64,000 nucleotides of DNA from a virus (Duplodnaviria; Caudoviricetes): positions 64,545 to 128,544 of the IMG/VR virus record IMGVR_UViG_3300035208_005087. One strand, 5' to 3'. Shown piece after piece: positions 27,820 to 60,787 of the stretch. Under the pieces are notes generated by a model. It made no database searches, had not been told where the DNA came from, and saw only the letters and a program-made list of their open reading frames with translations. Both the position numbers and the translations under genes were made by a program. Every line of letters begins with the position of its first letter. Within the stretch, counting starts at the first letter, position 1.

Positions 27820-28251
27820 TTAGATGATGTTTTTCGCTTTTTCCTTGAGGCGTCTCAGGCGTACCTCATCTATACCCGCCGAGTTTTGGGAGCGGGCTTC
27901 TTTACTTACGTACTTTTTAAACTTACCTGTGTCAGCCCCTTTCTCTTTGGCCAATTTTTCTGCGTCCTTCCATGAAGAGACTTCTTCCCCATTTACGTTA
28001 GGTATTAGACCCTTGTTACCGTACCTTTCTAGCTGAGTCACAGACATTTGTGCCCTACTCTTACGGCGCCGACGCTCTTCCATGTAGTACTTACTTGCCG
28101 TCGGGCCTTTTATATAAGACCCAGAACCCCCCGTGGCGTATCTACGCATGGGTTCTTTACACGCATCACAAAGTATTTCAGGTCTCTCCCCTAACTTGTG
28201 AACTACATCTTTCACCTCACCGCAAGCACACTTGTATGTGTATATAGGCAT
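27820..28251 (-). CDS. FmdB-family zinc-ribbon protein
   Basis: MPIYTYKCACG...CDACKEPMRR, typical FmdB N-terminus. Confidence 0.8.
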   Translation of the reverse strand: MPIYTYKCACGEVKDVVHKLGERPEILCDACKEPMRRYATGGSGSYIKGPTASKYYMEERRRRKSRAQMSVTQLERYGNKGLIPNVNGEEVSSWKDAEKLAKEKGADTGKFKKYVSKEARSQNSAGIDEVRLRRLKEKAKNII

Positions 28252-28268
28252 AATGGGTATCTCCTTAT

Positions 28269-29576
28269 TTATGATATTTTATCTTTTATTACTGCATAAG
28301 CTACATCGGAAAGATACTTAGGTATCTTACCAAAAGCTTTTTTGTATTCTACTAACAACAGGACTATGGTGCTGGGGCTATCCTCTAGCCTCTCCAGTAC
28401 TTTTTCCTGGACACCCTTTCTGAGTTCCGCAAAGGTACCCTGCACATAGTCATATAAGGCGTATTCACTTACCCCCCTATCCTTTAAACTTTTTCTACCT
28501 TGTTTTAACACATCCCCATGTAGCCTAGAGTCCTCTAAGAATTGTACAAAATCCGTCTTCCGGTCTAGTTGATACTCTTCCGTAATTTCCTCTTTGGGTA
28601 AAGTGCTTATATCTTTAAAAGCGTCGTCCTTCACACTCAGTAGCTTGTTCTGTATATCCTCGGTGTATGCTTCCTCATCGGGTAAGAAGTCTGATAACTT
28701 TGTAGACACGGCGGCTATGTGCTTACACGCGGTTAAGCCCTTGCCCCTCCCTCCGTTTTCCTTGCTGCGGGGCTCCATTAGTTGAGGACGAAACTTAGGC
28801 ATATACATGTACTTACCTTTCACAGCATAAAATTGGGGGCCTCCCCATAAAAAATCCTCACAAGAACAGGCTATCAGACAAGGATGCTCAGCTAAGGACG
28901 ACTTGCCTTGTGCCTTCAGGAATTGTACTGTAACCTCCTGAGCATCTGAGCCTCCTGTAACCTTTAATACATATCGTCCTTTTTCTTTCTCATCTTTTTT
29001 TGAAACATCCTGTACCGTCAAACTTTTTGCACTCTCTAAGATGTCCCTAGACCTTTCATGACTGCTATTATCCATCACTTCTTTAATGGTCTTGGCCACC
29101 TTCTTACCAGGAGTCTGGGAGGCTTCTATCGTGTTGTACGGACCATACAGATTGGAACCCCACGGATTGCCTGTCGCATCATCTTGCCTATGCCGGTTTT
29201 GCCAAGTCATCCAACGAGAATTGTCGGGCATCTCACTTCTATTGGGTTTAGTGAACTCTACAGGGAATAAACTACCCTTACCCGGTCCTAAATTGTCATT
29301 CTCATTTGCTGGCTGGTACTCTTGCTCCCTAGAACGGCTACGTCCATCTTGTACCCCATCCAGTAAACTTTTACCTAGCTGCCCGTCCGCGTTGGCCGGG
29401 CTTGTGTCCACGACAGCCTTAGAAAATTCATTAATGGTGTTCTGACTGGGACGCACCCTTGGCGTGTTTTTCTTTTTAAGATACTCTAACCAAGGAAGAC
29501 TTTCTTCCTCTTTATTAAATCCTAGGTACCTGGAGGCCACCTTGTATGCTAAACTTCTTATAACAGTATTCTTCAT
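28269..29576 (-). CDS. SWIM zinc-finger protein with long N-terminal leader
   Basis: ACSCEDF...ACKHI (CxC-x(n)-CxH). Likely start is ATG 29576, because the ORF-track start lies inside a terminator. Leader RSLAYKVASRYL. Confidence 0.7.
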   Translation of the reverse strand: MKNTVIRSLAYKVASRYLGFNKEEESLPWLEYLKKKNTPRVRPSQNTINEFSKAVVDTSPANADGQLGKSLLDGVQDGRSRSREQEYQPANENDNLGPGKGSLFPVEFTKPNRSEMPDNSRWMTWQNRHRQDDATGNPWGSNLYGPYNTIEASQTPGKKVAKTIKEVMDNSSHERSRDILESAKSLTVQDVSKKDEKEKGRYVLKVTGGSDAQEVTVQFLKAQGKSSLAEHPCLIACSCEDFLWGGPQFYAVKGKYMYMPKFRPQLMEPRSKENGGRGKGLTACKHIAAVSTKLSDFLPDEEAYTEDIQNKLLSVKDDAFKDISTLPKEEITEEYQLDRKTDFVQFLEDSRLHGDVLKQGRKSLKDRGVSEYALYDYVQGTFAELRKGVQEKVLERLEDSPSTIVLLLVEYKKAFGKIPKYLSDVAYAVIKDKIS

Positions 29577-29627
29577 GTATACCTTTATTGTATTGAAAGA
29601 ATATTTTGCGGAACTGTTGAAGGCATG

Positions 29628-29655
29628 AAAAAAGGGCACCAAAAGAGGCGCCCTT
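29628..29655 (-). terminator. Intrinsic terminator
   Basis: AAGGGCGCC-loop-GGTGCCCTT followed by a T-run on the minus strand. Confidence 0.8.
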
Positions 29656-29663
29656 CGATTTCC

Positions 29664-30974
29664 TTATGCGAGTGCTTCTAGTCTCGCGATAGCCCCTTTC
29701 TTCACCTTCCAGTGAGACTTTTTGCTCACCCTGATAAAGTTCAGCTGGTCTTTGGATTCTAAAGACTCAACTAAGGCCACCTTCTGTTCCAGGTTCAAGG
29801 TTTCCCAGTTCTCTGGGTATTCCCCCTCTACTTCTGAAGGTTCTGCTTTCTTCGGGGCGGATTTGGCACTAGCTTTCTTGCTAGTCTTAGCCTTAGGTGC
29901 CGCTTTCTTTGGTGCGGGAGGAGGTGGGGGAGCCTTTTTGCCTTTATCTGCCACGGGTACTAATTTAGCGTACTCCGAAGCTAATAACTGACTGTCAGTC
30001 CATCCCGCGCTTTTCATTTCCTCATACGTGTATCCGTTGACGGTCACTTCCGTCGATATAGGCTGAGCTTCTGGGGGTACAGGTACTGGAGCCTTTTCCT
30101 GGGCTGCTCTGCGTTTTTCAATAGCAGCTAGTTTACTTGCCTCCCATTCCCTTCTTGCTGCCTCACTGGTCTTCGCCTGCTGGTGCACGTTGCCGTCTAC
30201 GATACCTTGTGACCCTACCACCGTCACGGTAGAGTGGGGGCTTTCTTTGTATTCTTTGTACTGTATTCCAGCTTGCTTTAAAACAGTCCTTTCTATCGCT
30301 TCCTCTGAAATAGGTGTACGGCTGGTCACTTCAGTCTTTTCTGCCTTGGAAGGAACCTGCCTCTTTAGGGGGATAAAACCCTCGTCGGCGTAGTCCGCTA
30401 CCTGTAGTTTTTCCCGTACAGTGCTTGGAGCCACCACCCCTCTGTCTGTACGTACCGTGGCTACCACCTCATTCTGGCCTTCTTCATCCAGTACTGCAAG
30501 CTTGGTTCTACCTGTCTGTGCTGTGGTAGCCCTCTGTTGTACCGATCCAGCATCCTGGTAAGATGTTGTACGGGCGATTACACCCTCTTCATCATTGTCT
30601 ACATTTAGACCTCGTTGAGAGGAAGTAGCGCTAGAATAAACAGTTCGGGCATTATTATCAGACTTGGCTTCATGGCGCACCTCCCTAACGATCTCCTGGC
30701 GTTCTTCCACTAAAGGAGCTCTCTCCTGCATCACAGGGGCTTGTTGTGGCACCTCTTGCTCTACGGCACCATCATCGACCAGTAACCTTAGCCATCCTAA
30801 CTTAATGCATTTAGACAAAGAAGTAGAGGCATCTTGTATGCTGCCGTACTTGACATTATAGCCATCATATTGAATGATTTCCCCTGGGGATACTGTCAAC
30901 CCCATATTTAAGGCGGGGTTGTTTATCAAAGATAAAGTGAAACGCTCAACGACGACGTAGCTTTTCATGTTCAT
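29664..30974 (-). CDS. Hypothetical low-complexity protein
   Basis: 436 aa; Pro/Ala/Lys-rich linkers; YTYEEMKSAGWTDSQLL module; own late motif and terminator. Confidence 0.7.
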   Translation of the reverse strand: MNMKSYVVVERFTLSLINNPALNMGLTVSPGEIIQYDGYNVKYGSIQDASTSLSKCIKLGWLRLLVDDGAVEQEVPQQAPVMQERAPLVEERQEIVREVRHEAKSDNNARTVYSSATSSQRGLNVDNDEEGVIARTTSYQDAGSVQQRATTAQTGRTKLAVLDEEGQNEVVATVRTDRGVVAPSTVREKLQVADYADEGFIPLKRQVPSKAEKTEVTSRTPISEEAIERTVLKQAGIQYKEYKESPHSTVTVVGSQGIVDGNVHQQAKTSEAARREWEASKLAAIEKRRAAQEKAPVPVPPEAQPISTEVTVNGYTYEEMKSAGWTDSQLLASEYAKLVPVADKGKKAPPPPPAPKKAAPKAKTSKKASAKSAPKKAEPSEVEGEYPENWETLNLEQKVALVESLESKDQLNFIRVSKKSHWKVKKGAIARLEALA

Positions 30975-31082: not shown

Positions 31083-31751
31083 TTATCCTTTGGCCAATGC
31101 CGCTAGCTTTTCCAGGATTTTTTCTTTCCTTAATTCTCTTGTTTGAGCAAGTTGGGCCAGATAATCCTCAGAATCCTCTATGTCCCCGGGCTTCTGCGTG
31201 TTTACCCGCATTTCACTTAAAGCCTGCCCAGGTTCTTCATCTGGGTCCCCCGTACTAGTCTCCAAGTCCTGTACGTGCTCTTCCTCGTCTTGAAGAATAT
31301 CCATAAGCTCATCCGCTAACCCATATTCCCCTAAAGACATAGCCTGTACGATCCTTTCTTTATACCTGGCCACCGCCGTGTGTTCATCCTCTAGATCCTG
31401 TAGTAACATCTCAGAGGATTTAGCGCTCTTCTTTATTTCCCCTAAGGATACATCTGGTACGCCCCCTAGCTGCGCGATACGGTCGGCTATGACGACAGAA
31501 TGCTCTATTTCTTCTTCCGCATGCTCTTTTAGATGTTGACGGATATTGTCGTATGCCGCCCCTCTCATTACTGCGTAGTGCTGGTAATACTGTAGGGCTG
31601 CTGTGTATTCTAGGATCAGATCCCCTTGCAGACCTTCTATCAGGTCCTCTTTAGTCACCTCCACCTCGGGAAGTAACACACTCGGGATAGCAGCCGTCTT
31701 CACACCCCTATCCTTCTTAAAAATCGTATTAAAAATATCTACAGTACCCAT
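31083..31751 (-). CDS. Bacterioferritin/ferritin-like di-iron protein with N- and C-terminal extensions
   Basis: Ferroxidase ligands LEYTAALQY..H, EEEIEH, DEHTAVARY, DEEEH; DRIAQLGGVP turn. Confidence 0.9.
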   Translation of the reverse strand: MGTVDIFNTIFKKDRGVKTAAIPSVLLPEVEVTKEDLIEGLQGDLILEYTAALQYYQHYAVMRGAAYDNIRQHLKEHAEEEIEHSVVIADRIAQLGGVPDVSLGEIKKSAKSSEMLLQDLEDEHTAVARYKERIVQAMSLGEYGLADELMDILQDEEEHVQDLETSTGDPDEEPGQALSEMRVNTQKPGDIEDSEDYLAQLAQTRELRKEKILEKLAALAKG

Positions 31752-31771: not shown

Positions 31772-34528
31772 CTAGGTTTCTACTAATTCTTTGTTTTCAG
31801 CTAACTTCTTCAAGGCGGCTAGCACCTTCTGGGCCTGCTTGTCTACCGTAGGTACCTTAGCCCTCTTGTTTTTCAGGTACCCTATAAGGGCCTTAACTTC
31901 TTGGTAAGGTAAGAACTCCTCTATCTCCGTCCCATCCGGGTACTCTTCCGAGTGCTCAGATACCCATTCTTCTAGGGCTTCTACTGCTTCCGTCTGCTTT
32001 TCCACCGCCGGTCCATCTATCTGGGAGAATACATTAGACAACGCCGTCTCTAACCCATAAAGGGGTAGCGATGAAGGTCTCCCCCTCTTGTACTGCGAGT
32101 ATGTCTCCCCCGTAGGAGCCGAAGGTTTTTCCTCTACAGGTTTTTCCTCTACAGGTTTTTCCTCTACAGGTTTTTCCTCAGTGGGTGTTTCCTCTACAGG
32201 TTTTTCCTCAGTGGGTGTTTCCTTCTTAGCATAGGGTGGGGAGGTCTCCTCCTTATCCTCCAACGCTTCCTCAGTCTCCTTCTTTATTGGTGATTCAGTA
32301 GTAAGAAGTGTTTCTTTTACCATACTTATGAGGTCTTCACCAACATCCTCTTTTGTCAATAAGGGGGCCTCCGGTAGCTTCTGAAAACTTTCTATGGTAT
32401 CTACCAAGGACTCTTTCTCTTCCGCAAAGGACTCTTGTACACTCTCAAGGCTTTCCTTAAAGTCCTCTAGCATACTTTCTACTTTTCCCCTGTCCGCACC
32501 CGAATCCCCTAGGGATCTTTCCACCTTAGTCAAAAGCCCCTTTAAGTACCCTACAGTAGCTCTGCGGATGACGGGGTCTGCTACCTTTCTGTTAAGGGCT
32601 TTCCCTGTCTCTTTTAGGGCCTCTTCTAAATACGCTACGACGTCCTCGGGTTTGCTTGTCACAAGCTCTCTTAAAGCCTTATTAACATCCGCCTCTAATG
32701 ATTCCGCCGCATCCTCTACCTGGGTAACCCCTTGTGCCTTCGTCTTTATCCTTTGCTCCAGACGCTCTTTTACCTCCTGCAGGGTTACTACATCCTCTGA
32801 AGGTACCTTCTCTCCTTTAGGGGTCTTCTCTTTAACAGCTTCCAGGAATGGGACCACTTCTTTATCCTGTATTTTCACAGGGGTCTTCTTGTAAGGGGCC
32901 TTTCTTTTTGCCTTAGCTTTTGCGGGCTTTTCCTTCTGGATACCGTCCCCTGGTGCCTTTTTAGAAGTCTCTCCCTTTTCCACACCAGTAGCATCGGGCT
33001 CAGGAGTATCCGGAGATTTCTTCTCTTCCTCGAGTACCGGACGACCTTTCTGTTTCTCCATCTCTTTTTTTAGGGCTCTTTCCTCTTTTAGCTTTTCTAC
33101 CTTTTTTTGTACGATCTTTATAACGGAAGGTAGCTTTTTACCCTCGGCATCTAGTATTCTTAGAATGTCTTCGTCAGGAGTGCTTGGTCTTACCGCTAAG
33201 CCCAATATAGCATTAAACATCTTCCTCATGGGTGACCCTTTAAATACATATGCAACGCTTAAGGTTTTCACATCTATGGGTCCTTCAGGAATAAGGTACT
33301 TACCCGCTATCGCATCCCCTATTCTTGTCACTTTGCTTTTTAGCTTGTCTGGCACCAGCCCATCCCGCACGACTACATCTGTCATGGCCCGCACTGCATC
33401 TCTATCACCCCTCTCTAGAGTTCTTCCCGCTATCTCTGTAGGCCTCTGCGATAGATCCCTACTGTCAATGCTATCCTCAATACCCTGCTGTTCTTCTTCG
33501 GGCACTCCCTGGTGTTCTTGTGCGACAGAGGGAACCTTCTCATAGTAGTTTCGCAGGGCACTGTACATATTGTTATCCCCGTCCAAAGCGATAAGATGAA
33601 AGGTGTTTATCACACTTTCTTGCTTTTTTGGGTTATCTCTGTAATGGTCTAAAGCCTTTTTGTAAGACTCCAGAAAGCCTCTTAGGTCTTTTGTGTATGG
33701 CAGGGTACCTACCTCTGCAGCCAACTTGAGACCTTCTATCTGACTTTCCTTGCGTTCAAAAATCTCGGGGTAGAACTCTCCTGTACTGCTAAAGCCATTG
33801 TTCTTCAAAGCTCTTTTTATCCTGTTCCACTCGGGCAGAACAGTTTCTTCCTCTATCTCTTTTATGGCTCTTAGATAGCCCTCTGTTTTGTCGGGATCAC
33901 CTTTCGTTAATATCTTCTGTACCCTTGCCCGTATAGCTGTAGTAGTTTTATCTAAACCCTCTTCCGCGAACCACTTGTTCTTCTCGTAATTCTTTTTACT
34001 TTGGGGATCTTTAACCTCTATCCCTCTCTTTTCTTTTGCTAACGACTCTACCATATCATTAACCATATCAAAAAGAGCTCCCCTGCTTAAGAGCAAGTCG
34101 TGTACAATGGAGTACAGTCGTTTAAGTGCCTCTGTGTTTCCCCGAAACACCCTTTGAGACGCGAAGATGTTCTCTACAAAGACCTTTGTCCACTTCCTTA
34201 GATTATTGATGTAGGAGGATATAGCAACGCTATCGGTAGCTCGTTTTTCTTGTAAAGATCTTTCCACCTCATCTAAGAACTTTTCTTGGTTCCCCTGCCA
34301 TAACCCTATCTGAGACAAAGCTTGTGCTGCATCTTTCAACCCTTGATCTAATGCTTTTTGGTTTTGCACCACCTTGTCCGAGAACCACTCAGGGTTTTCA
34401 CTTAAGTCTTCCTCTAGGGTATCCGCTAGATTTAAGAACACCTCTTCGACGTTCTTCTTATCCTTAAGAAGGTTTTGGGCCTTCTGGATTTCGCTGCTGC
34501 CTGCCATCTCTTTTTTTAAACCTACCAC
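31772..34528 (-). CDS. Large helical charged protein, putative internal head/ejection protein
   Basis: 918 aa, Glu/Lys-rich; EEKPV tandem repeats near 32120-32220; multiple K-x-A sites. Start may be ATG 34507. Confidence 0.6.
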   Translation of the reverse strand: MVGLKKEMAGSSEIQKAQNLLKDKKNVEEVFLNLADTLEEDLSENPEWFSDKVVQNQKALDQGLKDAAQALSQIGLWQGNQEKFLDEVERSLQEKRATDSVAISSYINNLRKWTKVFVENIFASQRVFRGNTEALKRLYSIVHDLLLSRGALFDMVNDMVESLAKEKRGIEVKDPQSKKNYEKNKWFAEEGLDKTTTAIRARVQKILTKGDPDKTEGYLRAIKEIEEETVLPEWNRIKRALKNNGFSSTGEFYPEIFERKESQIEGLKLAAEVGTLPYTKDLRGFLESYKKALDHYRDNPKKQESVINTFHLIALDGDNNMYSALRNYYEKVPSVAQEHQGVPEEEQQGIEDSIDSRDLSQRPTEIAGRTLERGDRDAVRAMTDVVVRDGLVPDKLKSKVTRIGDAIAGKYLIPEGPIDVKTLSVAYVFKGSPMRKMFNAILGLAVRPSTPDEDILRILDAEGKKLPSVIKIVQKKVEKLKEERALKKEMEKQKGRPVLEEEKKSPDTPEPDATGVEKGETSKKAPGDGIQKEKPAKAKAKRKAPYKKTPVKIQDKEVVPFLEAVKEKTPKGEKVPSEDVVTLQEVKERLEQRIKTKAQGVTQVEDAAESLEADVNKALRELVTSKPEDVVAYLEEALKETGKALNRKVADPVIRRATVGYLKGLLTKVERSLGDSGADRGKVESMLEDFKESLESVQESFAEEKESLVDTIESFQKLPEAPLLTKEDVGEDLISMVKETLLTTESPIKKETEEALEDKEETSPPYAKKETPTEEKPVEETPTEEKPVEEKPVEEKPVEEKPSAPTGETYSQYKRGRPSSLPLYGLETALSNVFSQIDGPAVEKQTEAVEALEEWVSEHSEEYPDGTEIEEFLPYQEVKALIGYLKNKRAKVPTVDKQAQKVLAALKKLAENKELVET

Positions 34529-35139
34529 GGGTACCCCTTAAGTTTTTCTTCAAAGTATTTATTTTTCTCTTCGGGGATAAACTCCTCCAACCCTGCTACC
34601 TTAAAAGCAAAAGTATCTGCAAAGTCGTCCCATGGGTTTGTCCTGGCGTAGTACCTAACAAACTTAGCATCCGGGTCATAATACCACTCCCCTGCCTTGG
34701 TTTTTCCCTCTTCCTTGTCTTTTATTATGATCTGGGCTTTACCTTTTTCTGGGGTCTCCGACCAGCCTGATAAGGATAACCATTCAGGACTAAGGGATAA
34801 CTCTCCCTGCTTATCGTCCCACCCATGCCCCAGCTCGTGGAATAAGATGTGGTCAAAAGCCTCTAACTCTTTTCCTTGCGAGTCCCTGTACAAGGTACTA
34901 TCATCTATCAGCTGTGAATTTAGCACTAATCTGTTGTCCACATAATAGCCATGGTTCGGGTAGTACTCCCTGGATGGGCCTAAATCCTCAAACCCCATAT
35001 TTTTTATACCACAGTCTATCACTAGAGGTTCTGGTAGCATACCTATCGAACGGGCTACCCTGGAGACCAATAAAGGGTCTATCGCATCTAAGATCGATAT
35101 TCGACACCTCTGTAATTTTTCTTTAGGGACACTAAGCAT
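34522..35139 (-). CDS. Zincin (HEXXH) metallopeptidase-like protein
   Basis: FHELGHGWD plus downstream YARTNPWDDFADTF. Confidence 0.75.
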   Translation of the reverse strand: MLSVPKEKLQRCRISILDAIDPLLVSRVARSIGMLPEPLVIDCGIKNMGFEDLGPSREYYPNHGYYVDNRLVLNSQLIDDSTLYRDSQGKELEAFDHILFHELGHGWDDKQGELSLSPEWLSLSGWSETPEKGKAQIIIKDKEEGKTKAGEWYYDPDAKFVRYYARTNPWDDFADTFAFKVAGLEEFIPEEKNKYFEEKLKGYPW

Positions 35140-35208: not shown

Positions 35209-35805
35209 CTAGTACCTAGACAGGACCTTTTTCTTCAGTTCTTTGATGGTGTCTGTAGGTTTTCCTATGTACTTTATGGCGATACCTTCGTTTTCTTCCC
35301 AGTCAACTATATTGTGATCCGTGTCATCTATCAGAATAGACCGAGCATCTGCGTATACCCCTTTTTCCCTATCAAAAACGTACTGCACATCTTGACCCAA
35401 ATTCTCCTGTACCCACACAGCCTTCCCTTCCTTTGCATAGGTGGAGTGCCCTGGAGAGGATAATATGATTGGGGAGAGAGGTTTCAGTGCATCCCATAAG
35501 ACCCTGCCATTCGGGAGCCATTCCATAGTGCTCCAGAACTCCAAGCTATTTGTAGTACCCCAAGATATATCCTGCATCTTAGTGAACGGTCTGCCCCCGT
35601 ACTCTTTGTACTGCTTTTCCCAGTTGGTAAGCACTCCGTCCATGTCTACGAATAACCTAAAAGCCTCCGTGTTAAAAACCTTTAAAAAGGACTGGTCTTC
35701 TACTAGGGTGCTTAACAATACACCCATGGACACATCCTTAACGCCAGCGCTAAGGGCACTTTTCCTTATGTACTTCTCTAGTACACTTGCTACTACACTC
35801 TTCAT
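35209..35805 (-). CDS. HAD-family 5'(3')-deoxyribonucleotidase-like protein with N-terminal leader
   Basis: Motif I FVDMDGVL, ILSSP, motif IV LIDD; likely start ATG 35805 with AAGGAGG RBS. Confidence 0.8.
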   Translation of the reverse strand: MKSVVASVLEKYIRKSALSAGVKDVSMGVLLSTLVEDQSFLKVFNTEAFRLFVDMDGVLTNWEKQYKEYGGRPFTKMQDISWGTTNSLEFWSTMEWLPNGRVLWDALKPLSPIILSSPGHSTYAKEGKAVWVQENLGQDVQYVFDREKGVYADARSILIDDTDHNIVDWEENEGIAIKYIGKPTDTIKELKKKVLSRY

Positions 35806-35827
35806 TGGGTACCTCCTTATAGGCACG

Positions 35828-35880: not shown

Positions 35881-36753
35881 TTATCGAGCAACTTTGATAC
35901 GGGTTAATCCCTTAGGATTAAATGCACCGATACCCACCATTTCAAAAATGGAGAAGCCGATTCGACGAGCTTTAGAATCATCAGCAGAAAGTACTGTCAA
36001 CTCAGTACGAACTGGGAAACGACCTAAAAATTCAGGTTCGGTACATACGTAGATGTAACCGGGTTCTACGATACGAGAAACCATGATTTGAGCGCCATGT
36101 AACTGACCGAACAAACCAGTTTTCAATAAGGTAGCCTGAGTTTCGATGTCCAACACATCACGACCCCATCGACGCAAGTCAGCAAAATCACGAGCATTCA
36201 TGAAAATGTATGCTACGCGGTTACCATACTGTTCTACTTCCGCGAACGCGTCAATAAAAGCAGATGGGCTGATAGGAGCATTAACGTTAACTTGTGGGTT
36301 TGGAACGCCACCGTTAAAGCCTGCAACAGACAATACGTCCATTACGTCAAATACGCGTGAATCTTCAGCAGCTTGTACCTGAGCTTTACCCAAGTTCATA
36401 GAGCGTTCTACTAAGTCGTAGCGACGTTCTTTGATTTGTGATAAAGGAACTTCAGGGTTGGCAGCAATTTCGAACAAAGAAAACAGAACACGTTCGCCAC
36501 GTGAAGTGCTTACAATGTTTTCACCTTCGTCAGATACAGCGTATGCTTTTACTTCTGGATCCTTGTCGTACAAAGGTAATGCACCATCAGGTAGTTCGTC
36601 CACTTCAAAGGCTTTTCGGCCAATGGAGGTGTAGTCTCTACGGTCACGTAAAGGCTGCTGCATAGAAGAAGCAATCTTGTGGCGACCAGCCTGAGTGTTG
36701 ATGTGCTTGCCGATTACGGCGTTTCTTTGAGCGTTTGAATTCTTCATGTTCAT
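35881..36753 (-). CDS. Major capsid protein, HK97 fold, short and encapsulin-like
   Basis: Order protease-scaffold-decoration-MCP; GRKAFEVDELP.G, AAEDSRVF, FMNARDFADL, GQLHGAQIMVS, GAFNPKGLTRI; strongly biased codon usage. Confidence 0.88.
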   Translation of the reverse strand: MNMKNSNAQRNAVIGKHINTQAGRHKIASSMQQPLRDRRDYTSIGRKAFEVDELPDGALPLYDKDPEVKAYAVSDEGENIVSTSRGERVLFSLFEIAANPEVPLSQIKERRYDLVERSMNLGKAQVQAAEDSRVFDVMDVLSVAGFNGGVPNPQVNVNAPISPSAFIDAFAEVEQYGNRVAYIFMNARDFADLRRWGRDVLDIETQATLLKTGLFGQLHGAQIMVSRIVEPGYIYVCTEPEFLGRFPVRTELTVLSADDSKARRIGFSIFEMVGIGAFNPKGLTRIKVAR

Positions 36754-37400: not shown

Positions 37401-38483
37401 CTATTTCGCAAAAACGTGAGACACGTCAGGAGTAGTTCCCCACACAGCAGCAAGTTCATCTTCTTCACTTCGAGCGGCAGACGCTTTTCGTACCATGCCT
37501 GCACTCATCTGTGATGGAGCCGGTTCATATGCTTGGAAAATGGATGCTAAGAGGTCTTGGCTGCTCGCTGTCTTAGCGGTGCCTTCACCCTCTTCACCTT
37601 CTTCCTCGCCTGCCCCGTCTTCTTCACCAAAAGTAATTTCCATTTCACCTTCGTCGCCTTCTACAGCAGGTGCTTCTTCGCCTTCCATACCTTCGTCGGC
37701 GTCATCGCCCATATCCATAGCTGGTTCGTTTTCCATTGCAGGAGCTTCGTCAGCAGGTTTTTGTTTCAATGCTTCTAACTCAGCTTTCAAAGAGGCTACA
37801 GTGGCTTCCAAGGCGGCTAGTTTTTCGTCACCTTCTTCAGCTTTTTCTTCACCGGCTTTCTTTTCGTCACCTTCATCAGCTTTTTCTTCTGCTTCGCCGG
37901 CTTTCTTTTCTTCGCCTTCTTCAGCTTTTTCTTCTGCTTCGCCTGCTTTCTTTTCGTCACCTTCTTCAGCTTTTTCTTCTGCTTCGCCTGCTTTCTTTTC
38001 GTCACCTTCTTCAGCTTTTTCATCACCGGCTTTCTTTTCTTCGCCTTCTTCTTTAGCAGATTGTAAAACATCTTCGGCTAAAGCAGCTTGGCGGCTCAAG
38101 ATCCCGTCTAAGGCAAAGTCCGGTAAAAACATCAAGTCTGTAGCGTTTGCTGTGATCACTTCTTCATTGGCCCCTGGTAACATACATTCAGATGCTGTAA
38201 CACACTTAGCAGCATGTTCACGCACGTTCTTAGAACTACGGATTTCGTTAGCGAATGCTAAACGTAATTCCCCGATGTTCATGTCATTGCGTTCTTTTAC
38301 ATCCTTGTCGTGCAAAGCCTTTGTTTCTTGAGTAGAAATAGGATCTTCACCGAATTCGGAAGGACCCCCAATATCATACTTCTTAGCGAAGGCATCACCG
38401 GTGTTGTTTTCTTGAGTGGCATCCAATGGGCCACTCATTTGTTCGCCAGCTTTTTTTCCTGTAAGACGAGTTCTCTGTGTCAT
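37401..38483 (-). CDS. Prohead scaffolding protein
   Basis: Highly acidic, EKKAG tandem repeats, coiled coil LEATVASLKAEL; lies between protease and MCP; likely start ATG 38483. Confidence 0.75.
   Translation of the reverse strand: MTQRTRLTGKKAGEQMSGPLDATQENNTGDAFAKKYDIGGPSEFGEDPISTQETKALHDKDVKERNDMNIGELRLAFANEIRSSKNVREHAAKCVTASECMLPGANEEVITANATDLMFLPDFALDGILSRQAALAEDVLQSAKEEGEEKKAGDEKAEEGDEKKAGEAEEKAEEGDEKKAGEAEEKAEEGEEKKAGEAEEKADEGDEKKAGEEKAEEGDEKLAALEATVASLKAELEALKQKPADEAPAMENEPAMDMGDDADEGMEGEEAPAVEGDEGEMEITFGEEDGAGEEEGEEGEGTAKTASSQDLLASIFQAYEPAPSQMSAGMVRKASAARSEEDELAAVWGTTPDVSHVFAK
37820..38050. repeat. Imperfect 30-39-bp tandem repeats encoding (E/D)EKKAG(E/D)(AE)EKA(E/D)EG
   Basis: Five KKAG units visible in DNA and protein. 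Confidence 0.85.
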
Positions 38484-38629
38484 TTTCAATCCTCTTTTTT
38501 TTGGGTTCAGAGTTTTTTGTTCTTCCCCCCTTGAGGCATAACGCTCCCTGCGGGGTCCATCCTTTCCCGGGCAAATGTCAACAAGTAGTATGTCTTCCCT
38601 TTCCCCGAAACTTTATGTTTTTTAAAAGG

Positions 38630-38655: not shown

Positions 38656-40302
38656 TTAAAACTGCTTAAGTATCTTAGACCATGTCGAAAAAACACTCTT
38701 TTCTCTAGCCGTTAGAGGCCGTACAGCCTTAGTCATAAAACCTAAAACAGGGTCTTTGACATTCGAGAACCCTGCGGTTTTTATGTACGAGTATACATCC
38801 CTCGCTACCGGTGTCCCATGCCTTCTTGCTTCTATAAAATCCAGCACTCCCATCATGTCATCCCTAGTAAATCCCAGTTTCTTTAGTACCGAGGGGTTCT
38901 TGGCCACAGCAAAAGCCATGATATTGGCCGCAGTTTTTATGTCTAAAATTTGGGATATGTCGATGGAGTATCTATCCTTCACATATTTAGCAGTCTTGCG
39001 GGTAGAGGCCTCTTTAACAATGCTGTCAGCCTCCCTAAATACATCCTGGTGCTCTATTATACCTTGAGCCACCTCATCCTGCTTACTCTTCTCTTGTAGA
39101 GTCTTCTGTAATTTGTCTAAGAGCACTTGCTTTACATTGGTAATTACCGAGTCCTCTATACTTTTTCTTATGTCCGCAAAAGGGGTCGCATCCGCTTCTT
39201 CCGGAGATACTCCAGGTTCTTCCCCTTCTTCTCCTCCTGATTCTCCCTCATCTGGGAATACACCGCCGGCATCTCCCTCTTCCGGAACAGCCGGCCCATC
39301 CTCTTGAGGCATTTCTGGGAATGCATCTGTACCCTCTTCCGTAGCAGGTGGTTCCTCAAAGCGCGCGGCACCTTCATCAGTTTCCTCATCAGCATTTTTT
39401 ACAGAAGCTGCTTTCAAGAAGGCGCCTACATCGTGATGCTCCGTCTTAAGATCTATTCTTTTCTGTAAAGAGGCCATTAAAGGGTCTACCCCTTTTTGTT
39501 CCTTTTGGGACTTTTCTAAGTTCATCTTAATAGTTTCAGGAGGGGACACTATATTATGGAGTACTGCCCCTGTGAAAGCTGGTTTTCGTACCCATGAGGC
39601 ATCTATGAACTGTACGCTCGAAGGGTCGTCTTTGTGGCCACAAATTTCTGCGATGATTCTTTTCTTACCAAATTCATCATAGAAGTAGTTTTTTCTGTAG
39701 TATTGGATATGCTCACACTGCTCTGCTTCATCTGCTGCCACGTTTCCACACCTACTACACCTGGAGTACTGTATTAAGCACCCCATGCTTACTGCGTTAT
39801 ATTCCTTCCTTAAAATCTTTTCACACATGTCGGGGAATTCCCAACTTGTGGCTATGAGCAAATCTACATAATAAGTAGTATTAGGTTCTCCGTCCTGTCC
39901 TACCCCTAAGTCTACCTCTCGTATAGCTGCATCAATAACCTTACCTCTAGAGAACTCCGGTTGCTGAATATGCTCTACGTAGTTATTGGCCCCTACAAAA
40001 GTCCTAAAAGTCTTGTACAGCAACTCTCGTTCCCAACAGTCACCATTGTTGTTCACAAATACAGAATGGTCCGGTTTTATGTAATAGTCCGACTTCAGGT
40101 CTTTAGAATCCGCCAACTCGATATCTACAGATGCCATGATAGTAACATGTGAGAGAAGCCATTTGTTAGGGTCGTATAAGGACAAAACCTCCGAGGCTGT
40201 TTTTGTCATGCCCTGGGGTCTTTTGGACGTAGCTTTTAACCATGCCCCTCGATCTACTTTGGGCGTTATTAAATCTGCGCTACTAGTTCTTCTCATGGCC
40301 AT
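38656..40302 (-). CDS. Prohead maturation protease (HK97/S78-like) with Zn-finger insert and acidic tail
   Basis: NNNGD..NYVEH (His), AVSMGC (Ser), CSRC..CEHI insert, DASWVRKPAF (compare E-x-S-x-V-x-x-P-A); position upstream of the scaffold. Confidence 0.75.
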   Translation of the reverse strand: MAMRRTSSADLITPKVDRGAWLKATSKRPQGMTKTASEVLSLYDPNKWLLSHVTIMASVDIELADSKDLKSDYYIKPDHSVFVNNNGDCWERELLYKTFRTFVGANNYVEHIQQPEFSRGKVIDAAIREVDLGVGQDGEPNTTYYVDLLIATSWEFPDMCEKILRKEYNAVSMGCLIQYSRCSRCGNVAADEAEQCEHIQYYRKNYFYDEFGKKRIIAEICGHKDDPSSVQFIDASWVRKPAFTGAVLHNIVSPPETIKMNLEKSQKEQKGVDPLMASLQKRIDLKTEHHDVGAFLKAASVKNADEETDEGAARFEEPPATEEGTDAFPEMPQEDGPAVPEEGDAGGVFPDEGESGGEEGEEPGVSPEEADATPFADIRKSIEDSVITNVKQVLLDKLQKTLQEKSKQDEVAQGIIEHQDVFREADSIVKEASTRKTAKYVKDRYSIDISQILDIKTAANIMAFAVAKNPSVLKKLGFTRDDMMGVLDFIEARRHGTPVARDVYSYIKTAGFSNVKDPVLGFMTKAVRPLTAREKSVFSTWSKILKQF

Positions 40303-42640: not shown

Positions 42641-43045
42641 CTAAAGCTGCTTTGAACCCTTAGCGTAGGCATCCTTGATTTCCTTTCCAGGATTTTTGGT
42701 GTCGGAGAACATGAAAGCGTTCTTCTGTATAGTCTCTGCTATACCATCCAAGTCCATGGCCAATCTTAAAGAGGCTTCCGTTTGATCTTCCGCTAATGTT
42801 GATGCCACCTTGTCCAAAATCTCTAGAGACGCTTTTTTTAGAGAGTCGGGTAGGATTAAAATTTCCTCTCCATCCTCTCCCCCAGTATTCTGCACAGTGT
42901 TCACCGGCTGAGGGTCTCCCTCCACTATTGCCGCTGCTTGCACACCCTCATCACCACCTGGTTGTCCGTCCTTGTCGGGGCTAAGGTACCCTGCGTCTGT
43001 GGGATTGTTGCTTTCTTCATTTGCCGCTACTTTACTGTACAACAT
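42641..43045 (-). CDS. Head-module protein with LDKVA helical motif
   Basis: Likely start ATG 43045 (GAGGGG RBS); LKKASLEILDKVASTL..LAMDLDGIA. Confidence 0.65.
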   Translation of the reverse strand: MLYSKVAANEESNNPTDAGYLSPDKDGQPGGDEGVQAAAIVEGDPQPVNTVQNTGGEDGEEILILPDSLKKASLEILDKVASTLAEDQTEASLRLAMDLDGIAETIQKNAFMFSDTKNPGKEIKDAYAKGSKQL

Positions 43046-43046
43046 G

Positions 43047-43334
43047 CTAGTGCCCCTCATCTACAGTGTTCTTAAGGGTGTCGTTTTCTTTACCGACCCC
43101 GTCGGCCTTATTCAAGGCAGTTTTACTAAAGCTGTTATAGGACATAGCCATACCTAAATACGCTATGACGCCTGTGTCCGGTCCTACACCTTTAGTCAGG
43201 TAGTGGAAACACATAGTCACCAAGATGATAAAGAGAGGTGCTCTTCCTATAGATATCTTTCTTTCCCCTACACTATTCGTGTCTGTGAACAAAGGTAACA
43301 TTGCCTTAGCTAGTTTACTAAACATTTTCAGCAT
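43047..43334 (-). CDS. Small two-helix membrane protein (holin-like)
   Basis: Two hydrophobic segments (APLFIILVTMCFHYL; GVIAYLGMAMSY) and a charged tail. Confidence 0.45.
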   Translation of the reverse strand: MLKMFSKLAKAMLPLFTDTNSVGERKISIGRAPLFIILVTMCFHYLTKGVGPDTGVIAYLGMAMSYNSFSKTALNKADGVGKENDTLKNTVDEGH

Positions 43335-44604: not shown

Positions 44605-44866
44605 TTACGTTCCCTCGTTTACCTTTAGGTATGTAGCTATTATTATCTCTTCCTTCCGCTCTATACTCTTGCATGTACTCCCTTCCATAGTCCCTTGTTT
44701 CCGAGATAGGGGTCATATGCTGTCTCCTAGGAGGCTTATAATTAGGCTGCTTCCTATAAGGTCTTTCTTTATCATCCAGCTTCTTAAGTGCGGCCTCTTT
44801 ACTTTCTTCCTCTTCTTCCACCGCCTGTCGTATGAGGCTGGAAATGTGTACCCATTTACTCTTCAT
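44588..44866 (-). CDS. Hypothetical protein
   Basis: 92 aa, AGGAG RBS, overlaps the portal stop. Confidence 0.6.
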   Translation of the reverse strand: MKSKWVHISSLIRQAVEEEEESKEAALKKLDDKERPYRKQPNYKPPRRQHMTPISETRDYGREYMQEYRAEGRDNNSYIPKGKRGNVNEYTE

Positions 44867-57388: not shown

Positions 57389-59287
57389 CTACAAACGACC
57401 GATGGATCTACCTGTTAGAGTGATATCCACACTAGGACTGATCTTAGCGGGCTGTACTACCCCAGCCAGATCTAAGTCCAGTACCCCATAAGATAACTCC
57501 ATGGCAGTTACTGGATCTACTTCAGAGGTATTCTTTACAGAGGCTTTTTTTACATTGGCCATCTTAAAGGAAACTCCCTGTGTCCTACAAATGTTGCAGT
57601 TGTGGTGTACACAAGATGAACATTTAGAAGCCATCACCAACTTAGCAGTCTTTTTTAAAGGGTACTTCTCTTTTGTACACTTGTCTAAAGATTCAGCAGG
57701 TACTTCATCCATATTGGCCATGGCCTCACGAATAATACTGTGTGCTTCTTGGATAGGGGTCATAGAGGCCACTTTGCTTCTGATGGAAGATACTGCCACC
57801 CCTTTAGCTACGGCCTCTTTAGACAACCCTAAAAGTTGTTGTCTCTTTTCTGCTTGAGCAGCATCTTTATCTGCAGCATAACGCACATGGTAGCTACCCT
57901 CCTGGCCACCACTCGCTACTTTTTTCACAGGAGTAATTTCTTCATTAGGAGTATTAGCTGCCGCCACCTTCGCCATTTTAATGATCTCGATGGGGTTAGT
58001 ACCTTTCCTACGACACTCTTGTTGAAGTCTGTTGTGTTCCCCAAGGCCTAGAGCCCCTCGGCTGTACATCTTCCCGAGCACTTCTGCAGCATGGGTGTTA
58101 TCTAGATCTCCCGTATTATTTAACAAACGGATACCAGATCTACTGGACACGTTTTCGGCAAAGCCCTGAGGTGTCTTAATAATCCCAGACACGATAAAAC
58201 TTGGGCGGATACGGGCTCCCTTTAAAGCCTGTACGGCTTCTGGCACATCTTTGTACAAAGACACGTCCGCAAGTAAATCCCCGATTAGATCGCTTTTAGG
58301 GATAAATTCTTGGATTTCTGGGGCGTACTTCACCAAGTCCGAATAACTTACCTTTTGGGGCATCAACTGGGCCATTTCACCTTTACCCTTACCGGCTAAG
58401 AGTAAGTTCTGAATCTGGGCTAGAAGGGGACGGGCTTCTGCTAAACGAGCTTCCCTTTCCTGCATAGCCGCATACTCATTCATTTTGTTAAAAGCACCTT
58501 GTTCTAGGAGTTTCTGGTTTTCCTCGGATAAACCCTCCACCTTCTCGGGCTGAACTTCTTCCTTTTTAGCAGCATAACGAGAAGCTAGAAATGCCCTACG
58601 TAATTCTCCCTTGCTGCTAATTTTTTCATCACTGGCTATCACACCCAAGTTACGAAGATGAGAGGCATAGTGTTCCAACACATCGGAGCTGTACGCCATT
58701 TTATCCACTACTACCTTTGCCAAATGTAGGCACTTACCAGATGCATCTGTATACTTCTTCTCTTTGATAGGTTTCCCTACAGCAAAGCTGGCCAACCTTG
58801 TTTTGTGGCGGCCTAATACTGATAAGGCTTCTTTAGTGGTGTTGAATACACTGAGGTCAATGTACACGTTCCCTATTAAACCGTCTTCAGCAGCTACTTT
58901 TGTTAAAACATCCGTAGCTGTATGTAGATCCTCGGAGGAGAACCTTTCTCTTAAATGACTAACCAACTCAGAAGAGGTGAGACCTTTCATCATGGCCTTC
59001 TTGGCCACTCTTTCTACCTCCACCTTTACGTCTGCAGAGTTATCCCTGTCCTTGTTAAGGATCTTTACATTATTGGGGATAAACCTTTCAGGACCATTGG
59101 CTAAATCCCTTTCCCACAGCGCTTGTAGTTGCGGTATGATCTGACGTTCAGATTCTGAGGGGTAGTTGTCCTTTTCTTTACCTTGAGTAGGGCTCAACCA
59201 ATCTAAATCGGTAACAGAGACATCCCCTTGGAGTACATTAGTCAGGTCCCCTAAACTGGAATTTTCTAAATCTTTAATCGTGTCCAT
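57389..59287 (-). CDS. Head-module protein with internal duplication and C-terminal Cys cluster
   Basis: GLIGNVYIDLSVF vs DLIGDLLADVSLY; CSSC..CNIC; many K/R-x-A motifs. Confidence 0.7.
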   Translation of the reverse strand: MDTIKDLENSSLGDLTNVLQGDVSVTDLDWLSPTQGKEKDNYPSESERQIIPQLQALWERDLANGPERFIPNNVKILNKDRDNSADVKVEVERVAKKAMMKGLTSSELVSHLRERFSSEDLHTATDVLTKVAAEDGLIGNVYIDLSVFNTTKEALSVLGRHKTRLASFAVGKPIKEKKYTDASGKCLHLAKVVVDKMAYSSDVLEHYASHLRNLGVIASDEKISSKGELRRAFLASRYAAKKEEVQPEKVEGLSEENQKLLEQGAFNKMNEYAAMQEREARLAEARPLLAQIQNLLLAGKGKGEMAQLMPQKVSYSDLVKYAPEIQEFIPKSDLIGDLLADVSLYKDVPEAVQALKGARIRPSFIVSGIIKTPQGFAENVSSRSGIRLLNNTGDLDNTHAAEVLGKMYSRGALGLGEHNRLQQECRRKGTNPIEIIKMAKVAAANTPNEEITPVKKVASGGQEGSYHVRYAADKDAAQAEKRQQLLGLSKEAVAKGVAVSSIRSKVASMTPIQEAHSIIREAMANMDEVPAESLDKCTKEKYPLKKTAKLVMASKCSSCVHHNCNICRTQGVSFKMANVKKASVKNTSEVDPVTAMELSYGVLDLDLAGVVQPAKISPSVDITLTGRSIGRL

Positions 59288-59288
59288 T

Positions 59289-60041
59289 TTATTGTTCTCC
59301 TACAGAATTCTTTTGGGTACCTTTCTCCGACGCCCTTTTTACCAACCCTTCTAAAACTTTGCTAGCGACTACTTTAGCCATAGCACTACTGTTGTCTCTC
59401 ATGCCTATAAATACTTTATTACTAGATGATGCTTTTTTTGAAAGGGCGGGGGCTTCCTCTGCTGCAGGGGTTCCCTCCGCATTTTCTAAAGGCTCAGGGT
59501 CTTCTTGTAATTCAGGTATCTCTGGGAACTCTTCGTCCTCTTCGCCTCCATCCTCCTGACCCACATCCCCCTCATACTCCGTTAGGAGTCTCTCTAACTC
59601 CTTGTCCACCTCATCTAAACTCTTTTCTGTATCACCCACGACCCTTTCCTTTAGGGAAATAATCTCATCTTTCTCGTCCGTGGAAAGGCCCCAGTTAGGG
59701 TTGTTGAACTCATCCATAACTGTGTCGCGCATGTTAGAGAGCATATTCTGCATCTCTGTTAAGTCCTCTTTCATCTCCCGTATGGCCATCACATAGCCAC
59801 GACCACCTAACTTACCGTCCGGGCTTATCTTACCTATGATAACAGACGTCAACACACCTAGAGCCCCTTGAACTCCCACAAATGAGGAGTTAATATTAGT
59901 AAGGATACTGACTAAAGTTGTCAAGTTTTCTTTATCGTAAGGAGGAGCTCCCTCCAACTCTCTTTTTAAGTCGGTACTTCTTTTGTAAGAAGCAGCTACT
60001 TTTCCTTGGAGGGTTTCTTTTGTGTTCTCTTGTGTCATCAT
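59289..60041 (-). CDS. Head-module protein
   Basis: 250 aa; ISPDGKLGGRGY; acidic region followed by KKAS, KVVASKVL, KRAS. Confidence 0.7.
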   Translation of the reverse strand: MMTQENTKETLQGKVAASYKRSTDLKRELEGAPPYDKENLTTLVSILTNINSSFVGVQGALGVLTSVIIGKISPDGKLGGRGYVMAIREMKEDLTEMQNMLSNMRDTVMDEFNNPNWGLSTDEKDEIISLKERVVGDTEKSLDEVDKELERLLTEYEGDVGQEDGGEEDEEFPEIPELQEDPEPLENAEGTPAAEEAPALSKKASSSNKVFIGMRDNSSAMAKVVASKVLEGLVKRASEKGTQKNSVGEQ

Positions 60042-60043
60042 AT

Positions 60044-60787
60044 TTACGCCTTGACAGCTGCACCGTCTTTGAAGTTCTTCTCGATAACCACGCCATCCTC
60101 ATCCTCAGAGATGGACCACAGCTCCCTGCTTGATTTGTGTATCAAGGTCTCCGCACTAACCCTTTCGAAGGCGTATAGGTCTTCTAATGATGCTAGCTTG
60201 ATTCTGTGAGGTGCGGCTGTCTCTTCTAAGGAATAACCTTTCTCATAGGCTGTTTTTACAACTTTTTCTACCATTGCTTTTGAGGGTCTCTTCATATTTA
60301 CACCTTCTTCGTTTAAATTTGTGGCATACACATAAACACTGCCGAAATTTGGTTCTACTCCATAGTAGTCGTTTCTTTCCCCTATCCTGGGCACCGGGTT
60401 CGCATCCCTGTCCCCTATTAAATTAGGAGCCTGCTCATCCTTTGTACCTCCTGAGGGTGTCCTTAAATCTGCTCCTCCCGGTACTGTACTATCTACAGGA
60501 AACACCTCCGGAGGTGTCGCGTTGATGTAAGTAGGGGGGCGCTCCCCTTGCCTTGTCATAGGAGGGTCTGATTCCAAATCTGATTGCCCCGGTATGGCGT
60601 ATGGTCTGTTTTGGGGGCCTCCCCAGGGCTCTGCATAGTTTAATAAATCTCCGCTGCCTTCAAAAGTCACAGACTCTTGATATAAGGGGTTATTACCGGC
60701 GGGGTTTGTCAACTCAGCCAATTTACTGATAACCCGTTCCTTAGAACGTATGGGTAACCCCTTTGGTATGTCTTGTAACCCTTTCAT
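60044..60787 (-). CDS. Head-module protein
   Basis: Likely start ATG 60787; Pro-rich N-half; C-terminal FERVSAETLIHKSSRELW. Confidence 0.65.
   Translation of the reverse strand: MKGLQDIPKGLPIRSKERVISKLAELTNPAGNNPLYQESVTFEGSGDLLNYAEPWGGPQNRPYAIPGQSDLESDPPMTRQGERPPTYINATPPEVFPVDSTVPGGADLRTPSGGTKDEQAPNLIGDRDANPVPRIGERNDYYGVEPNFGSVYVYATNLNEEGVNMKRPSKAMVEKVVKTAYEKGYSLEETAAPHRIKLASLEDLYAFERVSAETLIHKSSRELWSISEDEDGVVIEKNFKDGAAVKA

Follow-up and report, generated by a model that had tools for sequence, protein, structure and literature searches.

Head proteins of a large, uncultured Bacillus phage G relative: a predicted [KR]-x-A cleavage code and candidate capsid enzymes

The window analyzed here is a stretch of 64,000 nucleotides (positions 64,545 to 128,544 of the IMG/VR record IMGVR_UViG_3300035208_005087), which forms the second half of a 128.5-kilobase (kb) contig. 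Nearly all window genes are on the minus strand, and this is the strand meant below wherever none is given. The region 27820-60820 is a module for head morphogenesis. The phage itself is large and uncultured, with Bacillus phage G, Tunturiibacter phage Tunturi_5 and LR745208.1, an assembly of 485 kb, as relatives. The subject of this report is a short protein motif, [KR]-x-A followed by S, A, G or N, which is strongly over-represented in the proteins of this module and is most likely a cleavage signal, together with the prohead protease that probably reads it and the enzymes whose N-terminal leaders carry it. In the order of transcription, the module starts with three function-unassigned proteins (at 60044, 59289 and 57389), a small protein, the large terminase and a 1988-residue fibre-like protein. 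These are followed by the portal, several small proteins with an inserted TnpB, the protease, an acidic scaffold-like protein, a decoration-like protein and the major capsid protein (MCP). The last part consists of a HAD protein, a zincin-like protein, a 918-residue acidic protein, a ferritin, a 436-residue protein, a CxC..CxH protein and a Zn-ribbon protein. Among named relatives, LR745208.1 (MCP identity 60%), Tunturi_5 (45%) and phage G (36%) come closest in MCP and protease, and cluster C mycobacteriophages and Rhodococcus phage E3 are farther away. Metagenomes yielded at least 177 homologues of the protease, some of them on contigs of 290-470 kb. The window and at least eight relatives agree in the order portal, small genes, protease, scaffold, decoration protein and MCP, and another contig keeps the order protease, scaffold, decoration protein, MCP, HAD, zincin, 970-residue protein and ferritin.

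The 25 proteins of the head module (7722 residues) contain 64 occurrences of [KR]-x-A-[SAGN], where whole-protein shuffles predict 22.9 (z 8.8) and shuffles within local windows of 10-40 residues predict 24-25 (z about 8). The excess persists when the tandem EKKAG repeats of the scaffold are collapsed (60 versus 23.6 expected) and when the scaffold is left out (54 sites versus 22.8). Permuted motifs in the same proteins stand at background, with 17 occurrences of the reversed form [SAGN]Ax[KR], 24 of KA.[SAGN] and 23 of K..A[SAGN]. The remaining 75 proteins have 85 sites versus 63 expected, or, at background level, 65 versus 56 (z 1.2) once three outlier proteins are removed, and the counts are as low as one in TnpB and in a collagen-like protein, two in a glycosyltransferase and three in the 1988-residue fibre. 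A site within the first 45 residues is about three times more frequent in head proteins (10/25) than in the others (9/75; Fisher p 0.006), and no general bias of sites to the protein ends was found (23/64 in the outer 30%, p 0.18). Past the positions P3 to P1', the leaders show weak preferences only. A DNA-level motif was considered as the cause and rejected: the codons at the sites are mixed, and the signal or constraint therefore lies in the protein. The original prediction, which had been made from the window alone, described the head proteins as studded with K/R-x-A, and this description agrees with the counts; every motif string that it quoted is present in the gene concerned. Its statement that the motif is usually followed by S, A, G or N stands as an enrichment but not as a majority, since this applies to 64 of 150 sites, and its placing of the sites often at the edge of acidic linkers did not hold, with a D/E fraction of 0.162 around the sites and 0.161 in the background.

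To guard against a post-hoc choice of motif, a pattern scan without preselection was made in which every residue pair at gaps 0-3 was scored against local shuffles. K-x-A ranks first among 1254 gapped residue pairs in the head set (z 7.0, with the runner-up at z 3.7). As a positive control, the same scan of the phage T4 head proteins gp20, gp67, gp68, gp21, gp22, gp23 and gp24 puts I-x-E first among 1040 pairs, which is the known cleavage motif of gp21 (L/I-x-E), and [KR]xA[SAGN] is not enriched in the T4 set (8 versus 7.4 expected). The enrichment of K-x-A is a property of the lineage: the corresponding locus of phage G has 44 sites versus 17 expected from shuffles, Tunturi_5 58 versus 31 and LR745208 68 versus 36, three IMG/VR relatives have 53 versus 19, 44 versus 19 and 19 versus 9, and four more contigs have 41 versus 16, 25 versus 12, 38 versus 22 and 16 versus 8. 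In the pattern scan, K-x-A ranks first in phage G and in the metagenomic relative L017 and second in Tunturi_5 and LR745208, and A-S comes out on top in L015, a metagenomic contig of 469 kb. Individual positions are retained as well, as 53% of the window sites are kept as [KR]xA at aligned orthologue columns (mean identity about 52%), compared to 30-35% for control triplets (p 0.004). In Tunturi_5, a protein annotated as "DNA ejection protein" has 14 sites. The distant Rhodococcus phage E3, in which the protease is a fused protein of 895 residues, has a weak excess (29 versus 17, with 19 for the reversed motif), and the [KR]-x-A code may not reach as far as this phage.

The prohead protease precursor (548 residues, 38656..40302) consists of an N-propeptide, an assemblin/gp21-fold domain, an acidic linker and a C-terminal domain. 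It matches phrog_18299 ("head maturation protease", E 2e-14); no Pfam family was hit at E <= 0.01, and a PDB profile search with the protease alignment gave no sequence match. An AlphaFold2 model of residues 1-300 has a predicted local distance difference test score (pLDDT) of 80, with residues 1-33 at 38-60 and a folded core from about residue 40. The four best structural matches of this model among 48,161 chains are T4 gp21 (5jbl; Z 8.0, root-mean-square deviation 2.7, 128 residues aligned) and the proteases of varicella-zoster virus (Z 7.7), human cytomegalovirus (6.2) as well as Kaposi's sarcoma-associated herpesvirus (5.4), and Foldseek also lists herpes proteases first, weakly (E about 0.02). 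Judged by the model, the protease has the assemblin/T4 gp21 fold; a Z near 8 is moderate, and the weight comes from all top matches being one enzyme class, the capsid maturation proteases. For each of H52, H111, S172-M-G-C175, C182, C185, C196 and C221, conservation among 103 homologues reaches at least 95%, and H198 is kept in at least 90% of a 44-sequence alignment. The enzyme had earlier been called a Zn-finger protease: it is indeed a protease but not primarily a zinc-finger protein, as the Cys cluster is inserted in an assemblin/gp21-fold domain with an invariant SMGC. Ser172 and His111 are likely the catalytic residues, and the spacing of H111, S172 and H198 (61 and 26 residues) presumably resembles that of the His-Ser-His triad of the herpes enzymes. 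Many protease homologues (P0040, P0047, P0067, P0087-P0092, P0099 and others) contain an intein of about 400 residues with a homing-endonuclease domain (PF14890, PF05203, PF14528). In the aligned homologue P0047 this intein is inserted exactly at the invariant SMG↓C, which corresponds to residues 174/175 of the window protease (about 39778-39783; here the arrow marks the insertion point, in all motifs below the putative cut bond). A position directly beside Ser172 fits a catalytic role of this residue, and we know of no other inteins in capsid maturation proteases.

Three sites of the protease lie at its own domain borders. The first, KAA↓S at residues 297-300 (39406..39414), immediately follows the catalytic domain, where the folded part ends, and lies just ahead of a hypervariable acidic linker. 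Its column has [KR]xA in 99% of 103 homologues, with S, A, G or N next in 92%, and it is the predicted self-release site, analogous to the R-site of herpesviruses. The second, KTA↓S at residues 34-37 (40195..40203), marks the end of the low-confidence N-terminal segment; [KR]xA occupies this column in 71% of the homologues, and the site is kept in phage G and Tunturi_5. The third, KEA↓S at residues 430-433 (39007..39015), stands between the linker and the C-terminal domain, and its column has [KR]xA in 77%. The protease of phage G (gp19) and that of Tunturi_5 have sites at the matching domain borders.

The acidic protein of 362 residues at 37401..38489, whose role as the scaffold is suggested by its position between protease and MCP and by its composition, has 10 sites versus 2.1 expected. 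These are KKA↓G at residue 12, RQA↓A at 133, five tandem EKKAG, KLA↓A at 223, KTA↓S at 306 and RKA↓S at 334. Four of them, those at 12, 133, 306 and 334, recur in the three closest orthologues amid otherwise divergent sequence. The tandem sites lie in five units of 13-15 residues (E-E-K-A-E-E-G-D-E-K-K-A-G; 37815-38051); close relatives have one or two such units, and thus the copy number varies. The last site, RKA↓S (37482..37490), is 26 residues from the C-terminus and is followed by the conserved tail DELAAVWGTTPDVSHVF (37404-37481). In all nine scaffolds examined, [KR]xA↓S is found 23-26 residues from the C-terminus, followed by ..LWxxxPDVSxVF; the five of them that come from more distant contigs have it 23-25 residues from the C-terminus. 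Most of the nine also have an N-terminal RLTT[KR]xA. By analogy with the M-site of herpesviruses, RKA↓S at 334 is predicted to be the site that frees the scaffold from the shell. Because the layout of the phage sites matches the release and maturation layout of herpesviruses in outline, the motif is most likely to be read as Lys/Arg at P3, Ala at P1 and Ser, Ala, Gly or Asn at P1'. The original prediction had held that the module protease cuts after K-x-A, unlike the Glu motifs of T4 and phiKZ, and in silico this is backed by the conserved columns and by the T4 control, with the module protease as the best candidate for the cutting enzyme.

Other head proteins have sites too. The portal (615 residues, 44856..46703, phrog_16240 match) has KVA↓N at residue 9, KLA↓S at residue 50 (46548-46556) just ahead of the conserved core, and RFA↓S at residue 579 (44961-44969) near the C-terminus. 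At the N-terminal position, RTA↓N, KVA or KMA↓S is seen in aligned relatives, the last of these at residue 55 of phage G, and the phage G portal has KIA↓S near its C-terminus. The MCP (290 residues, 35881..36753, phrog_2522) lacks a delta domain, is 36% identical to phage G gp27 (PDB 6wkk) and has KIA↓SS at residues 26-30 (36670-36678), within a block GRx[KR][ILV]A[SA]S kept in 10 sequences from two overlapping alignments. A function-unassigned protein of 632 residues upstream of the terminase (57389..59287), with no Pfam or PHROG match, has 10 sites versus 2.5 expected, and another of 436 residues (29664..30974) has 6 versus 1.7, with KQA↓G at 233 and KSA↓G at 321 retained by orthologues. Among the small head-module proteins in 42641..44283, those at 42641-43060 (3 sites) and 43318-44283 (4 sites) have conserved KKA↓S and DKVA↓S/N sites, and the former has an N-terminal leader with the end KVA↓A. 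The acidic protein of 250 residues at 59289..60041 has KVA↓A at residue 14, KKA↓S at 202 and KRA↓S at 235. The sites in the scaffold, in the proteins at 57389, 29664, 42641, 43318 and 59289 and in the DNA ejection protein of Tunturi_5 would fit extensive processing of the kind seen in T4 and phiKZ-like phages.

The enzymes encoded downstream of the MCP gene carry N-terminal extensions. The ferritin, a bacterioferritin-like protein (222 residues, 31083..31751; Pfam Ferritin over residues 39-165, E 4e-23), starts with a leader ending in KTA↓A (residues 1-20, 31692-31751), followed by the four-helix bundle, a disordered acidic linker and a C-terminal helix ending in KLAALAKG (31086-31256). Fourteen phage-type homologues share a leader of about 38 residues with the pattern FxxIFG..[VI]K[TAS][AS]S[IV]P, and the aligned site is K-x-A in 8/14 and absent in 1/14. 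The nearest homologues of 138 residues begin exactly where the leader ends, and one of them is located in a bacterial iron-uptake locus. Seven candidate ferroxidase ligands are invariant in the ferritin alignment; we take them to be the seven ferroxidase ligands of bacterioferritin in the numbering of E. coli Bfr. A C-terminal extension ending in KLAxLKKA after a disordered linker is present in 9/14 phage-type ferritins. The AlphaFold2 model of the window ferritin (pLDDT 86 overall) has a leader helix at residues 3-11 and a C-terminal helix at 195-221 on a disordered tether. This C-terminal helix, RELRKEKILEKLAALAKG (31086-31170), weakly resembles the C-terminus of the 918-residue protein, QKVLAALKKLAENKE (31772-31850), and also an internal helix, ELRKGVQEKVLERL, at residues 406-419 of the SWIM-like protein 28269-29642. 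The resemblances between the three proteins are not significant (short-BLAST E 0.05-0.2), and a shared anchoring helix could account for them.

The zincin-like protein with an HExxH motif (205 residues, 34522..35139, weak Peptidase_Mx hit) has a leader ending in RVA↓R at residues 27-30 (35053-35139). Orthologues retain the RVA, and in most small homologues [KR]xA is located at residues 7-14. The HAD protein, similar to 5'(3')-deoxyribonucleotidases (35209..35826; phrog_2643, E 1e-20, from residue 53), has an N-terminal extension of about 50 residues (35671-35805) before the DMDGV motif, which is carried by the five closest homologues only; typical HAD homologues have DxD at residues 5-20. The CxC..CxH protein at 28269..29642, for which Pfam SWIM was not significant, probably starts at M23 and would then have a leader of 14 residues, MKNTVIRSLAYKVA followed by S (29535-29576). 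In L004 the orthologue begins with the Met that corresponds to M23 and has retained RVA↓S, the backing coming from this one close orthologue only. Judged from the alignments to cellular homologues, which the original prediction had proposed, the leaders of the ferritin and the HAD protein are additions, as cellular-type forms lack them. The wider claim that the enzymes of the module carry leaders with the motif stands for the ferritin and the zincin, whose leaders end in a conserved K-x-A/S, but not for the HAD protein as far as conservation of the motif is concerned. In L015 (18334-19293, plus strand), a head-module protein of 319 residues with 2',5'-RNA-ligase/2H-phosphoesterase and weak Acb1 Pfam hits has a 23-residue N-terminal leader with the end KIA↓S, and is possibly a capsid-loaded anti-defence enzyme.

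Taken together, these findings suggest that an assemblin-fold protease cuts [KR]-x-A↓[SAGN] in head proteins and trims the leaders of enzymes that are packaged in the head, a reading to which we assign a probability of about 0.62. In this scheme, the 548-residue precursor would be built into the prohead via its C-terminal part, release its catalytic domain at KAA↓S (297-300) and trim its own N-terminal 36 residues. The scaffold would be fragmented at about ten sites, and the cut 26 residues from its C-terminus would detach the body from a putative shell-binding tail. The portal would be trimmed at both ends, several function-unassigned internal proteins would be processed, and short N-terminal leaders would be cut off the ferritin, the zincin-like and the SWIM-like protein. 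Leaders on enzymes imply that these enzymes are inside the prohead while the protease is active, and from this we infer that they are packaged. They may be targeted by the leader, by the C-terminal helix or by other means.

Several observations weigh against this proposal. About a third of the sites (about 24/64) are expected by chance, and the large terminase (54781-56685, PHROG terminase match), which is not a prohead component, has KGA↓S at residue 9. The relative L016 is without excess over shuffles, and L016 and L018 show little or no overall enrichment, though the scaffold and protease sites are kept. The phage G MCP has no Lys at the site aligned with KIA↓SS (VALAQA), and its PDB entry lists an essentially full-length chain of 280 residues; this block of the MCP may therefore have a structural role instead of being cut, and cleavage of the MCP at this position is doubtful. 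In the ferritin alignment, 5/14 sequences have Ser at P1 or a K-A-S register, and the leader of the window ferritin is modelled confidently (pLDDT about 87) against the helical bundle, so it could be integral to the fold, which weakens the picture of a free tag. The HAD extension has no K-x-A kept at one position among homologues. Finally, no targeting sequence is shared beyond the motif: an all-against-all short-word BLAST of the genome's proteins gave no significant leader or helix, and its best head-to-head matches are acidic low-complexity stretches. The shared helical leaders of the original prediction were therefore not recovered, and neither was the related amphipathic helix that it described in the proteins at 40456, 59289 and 60044, which have no significant segment in common; the VEKVV likeness of 40456 and 60044 is not kept in orthologues of 40456.

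Several of these points would also be explained if the cleavage code were real for the structural head proteins and the ferritin, HAD, zincin and SWIM-like proteins were not cargo, their extensions serving folding, oligomerisation or localisation in the cell, and K-x-A in them being incidental or structural. The packing of the ferritin leader, the HAD leader without a conserved site, the lack of a shared targeting sequence and the share of sites due to chance all agree with this explanation. So does the distribution of the ferritin, since tblastn gave two weak hits in isolated phages and none in phage G, and homologues were not found in cultured relatives; a ferritin-like protein, gp346, which a preprint lists in phage G particles, was not retrieved by tblastn as a relative of the window ferritin. 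However, the leaders are specific to the phage head-module forms and missing from cellular-type homologues, those of the ferritin and the zincin end in the motif at a conserved position in many homologues, the enzyme genes keep their place among head genes, and N-terminal sites are commoner in head-module proteins as described above. We therefore consider it unlikely that the enzymes merely neighbour the head genes, and prefer their packaging.

It is improbable that K-x-A-S is over-represented for structural reasons, as a helix or coiled-coil repeat of Lys/Ala/Glu-rich assembly proteins, and is left uncut. Many sites do lie in helical, Lys/Ala-rich proteins, and the N-terminal motif of the MCP is conserved within a longer block and has lost its Lys in phage G. 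Moreover, a 970-residue protein outside the module (G000:C1:53721-56633, minus strand; L010:13721-16633) has seven K-x-A-G and one R-x-A-A, which look like a repeat in a tape-measure-like protein and not like a set of cut sites. Composition is nevertheless ruled out by shuffling locally and by permuting the motif, there is no enrichment of the reversed form, the sites with the best conservation are at domain borders beside hypervariable linkers and not in repeats, and the same statistic recovers the known motif of the T4 protease. Cutting by another enzyme, either a host protease or the HExxH zincin-like protein, a second putative peptidase in the module (34522-35139) with a leader of its own, is more improbable still, since a search of 20 kb to each side of the MCP gene gave the zincin only in the closest relatives, L002, L004 and L012, and not in phage G, Tunturi_5 and LR745208 (the rest of these three genomes being unsearched), which all show the enrichment too, whereas the assemblin-fold protease is present in all of them and has the best-conserved sites at its own domain borders.

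Some proteins outside the head module are also rich in sites, and PHROG searches of these outliers gave nothing useful. A 312-residue protein at the head of a coiled-coil/actin-like operon (2094-3032) has 6 sites versus 1.2 expected (KYA↓A, KIA↓S, KCA↓A, KLA↓S, KEA↓G and KNA↓S) and may be a further substrate of the protease. A function-unassigned protein of 252 residues, encoded among tail genes 4.6-5.3 kb upstream of the window (G000:C1:59201-59959, minus strand; L010:19201-19959), has 7 sites versus 1.45 (KKA↓S, KLA↓A, KLA↓S, KEA↓A, KEA↓S, KTA↓S and KVA↓G), has no PHROG match and is a candidate for an internal or processed virion protein. The TnpB of the window (41176-42411), a complete OrfB_IS605 protein with Cas12f-like TNB and helix-turn-helix domains, is located between the head genes 42641 and 40456. 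The head region of LR745208 has a TnpB on the opposite strand that is 36% identical to it.

A tentative extension of the proposal, which we find conceivable but rather less likely than the reading of the window itself, is that the whole phage-G-like clade, including phage G and Tunturi_5, uses a herpesvirus-style Ala↓Ser maturation code that also loads leader-tagged enzymes for delivery with the DNA. If true, this cargo would include a ferroxidase-competent ferritin, the zincin and, in the 469-kb relative, the Acb1/2H-phosphoesterase-like protein. It would then also be a functional link between the maturation of tailed phages and herpesviruses beyond the shared fold, and provide the first capsid-packaged ferritin in a virus. 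To our knowledge, maturation codes have been established experimentally for few phage groups, such as T4 (L/I-x-E), phiKZ and SPN3US (A-x-E) and, as single sites, HK97-like phages, and a literature search found no description of a cleavage motif for the phage G lineage. A [KR]-x-A↓S code would offer a route to annotate the mature ends of proteins and the internal or ejected proteins in very large, mostly uncultured phages, and it nominates unusual capsid cargo in the form of a ferritin, a metallopeptidase-like protein and a nucleotidase. The prediction is cheap to test, as phage G and Tunturi_5 are cultured and liquid chromatography-tandem mass spectrometry data of phage G virions exist.

Of the known systems, T4 gp21 is the best structural match of the protease (5jbl, Z 8.0), and as in T4 one short motif extends over many head proteins and is statistically visible. 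The leaders resemble the capsid targeting sequences of the T4 proteins IPI-III and Alt in that short N-terminal leaders on non-shell proteins end in the motif: KTA↓A at residues 18-21 in the ferritin, RVA↓R at 27-30 in the zincin, KVA↓S in the SWIM-like protein and KVA↓A in the proteins at 42641 and 59289. However, T4 cuts after Glu (L/I-x-E), its leaders share a recognisable sequence where here the motif alone is common, and packaging and injection are proven in T4 but putative here. In phiKZ (gp175) and SPN3US (gp245), many head and internal proteins are processed, mostly by removal of N-terminal propeptides that contain several motifs each, at A-x-E↓ (PMC10052503). Extensive processing of head proteins in a large phage is what is predicted here too, but the motif is [KR]-x-A↓ instead of A-x-E↓, the lineage is different and no sequence match between the proteases was found. 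The loading of ferritin-like cargo into encapsulins, and the C-terminal capsid-targeting tail of the HK97 protease, offer a further likeness, as the window has a ferritin gene a few kb from that of a shell protein which has the HK97 fold and lacks a delta domain. The ferritin has terminal extensions, among them a C-terminal helix tethered by a disordered linker. In contrast to encapsulins, the N-terminal leader has a conserved cut motif and the system belongs to a DNA-packaging virus with portal and terminase, and the C-terminal KLAxLKKA helix of the ferritin presumably does not match encapsulin targeting peptides.

For the Ala↓Ser cut and the layout of the sites, the closest functional parallel is the assemblin of herpesviruses (pUL26 / UL80a protease) rather than T4. 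The release and maturation bonds of herpesviruses are both Ala↓Ser, with the consensus (V/L/I)-x-A↓S. In these viruses, assemblin sets itself free by a cut at the release site that follows its catalytic domain, and another cut, at the maturation site close to the scaffold's C-terminal end, severs the scaffold from the major capsid protein (PMC4498786). The phage system is like this in fold, in the position of two sites, one adjoining the end of the protease domain and the other about 25 residues before the end of the scaffold, and in the small P1 residue with Ser at P1'. It is unlike it in that P3 is Lys/Arg and not aliphatic, and in that the protease (38656-40302) and scaffold (37401-38489) are encoded by separate, non-overlapping genes with unrelated C-termini, whereas those of herpesviruses are nested in-frame. 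Many more phage proteins have sites, the protease has an extra Cys cluster (C182, C185, C196, C221) and the host is a bacterium. The predicted code suggests that the Ala↓Ser specificity of assemblin and its release and maturation layout also occur in tailed phages. Systems that combine wholesale proteolysis at one short motif with leader-tagged internal proteins are already known; the novelty lies in the predicted specificity, in a herpes-like arrangement of sites within a tailed-phage lineage to which the largest cultured phage belongs, and in the kind of candidate cargo.

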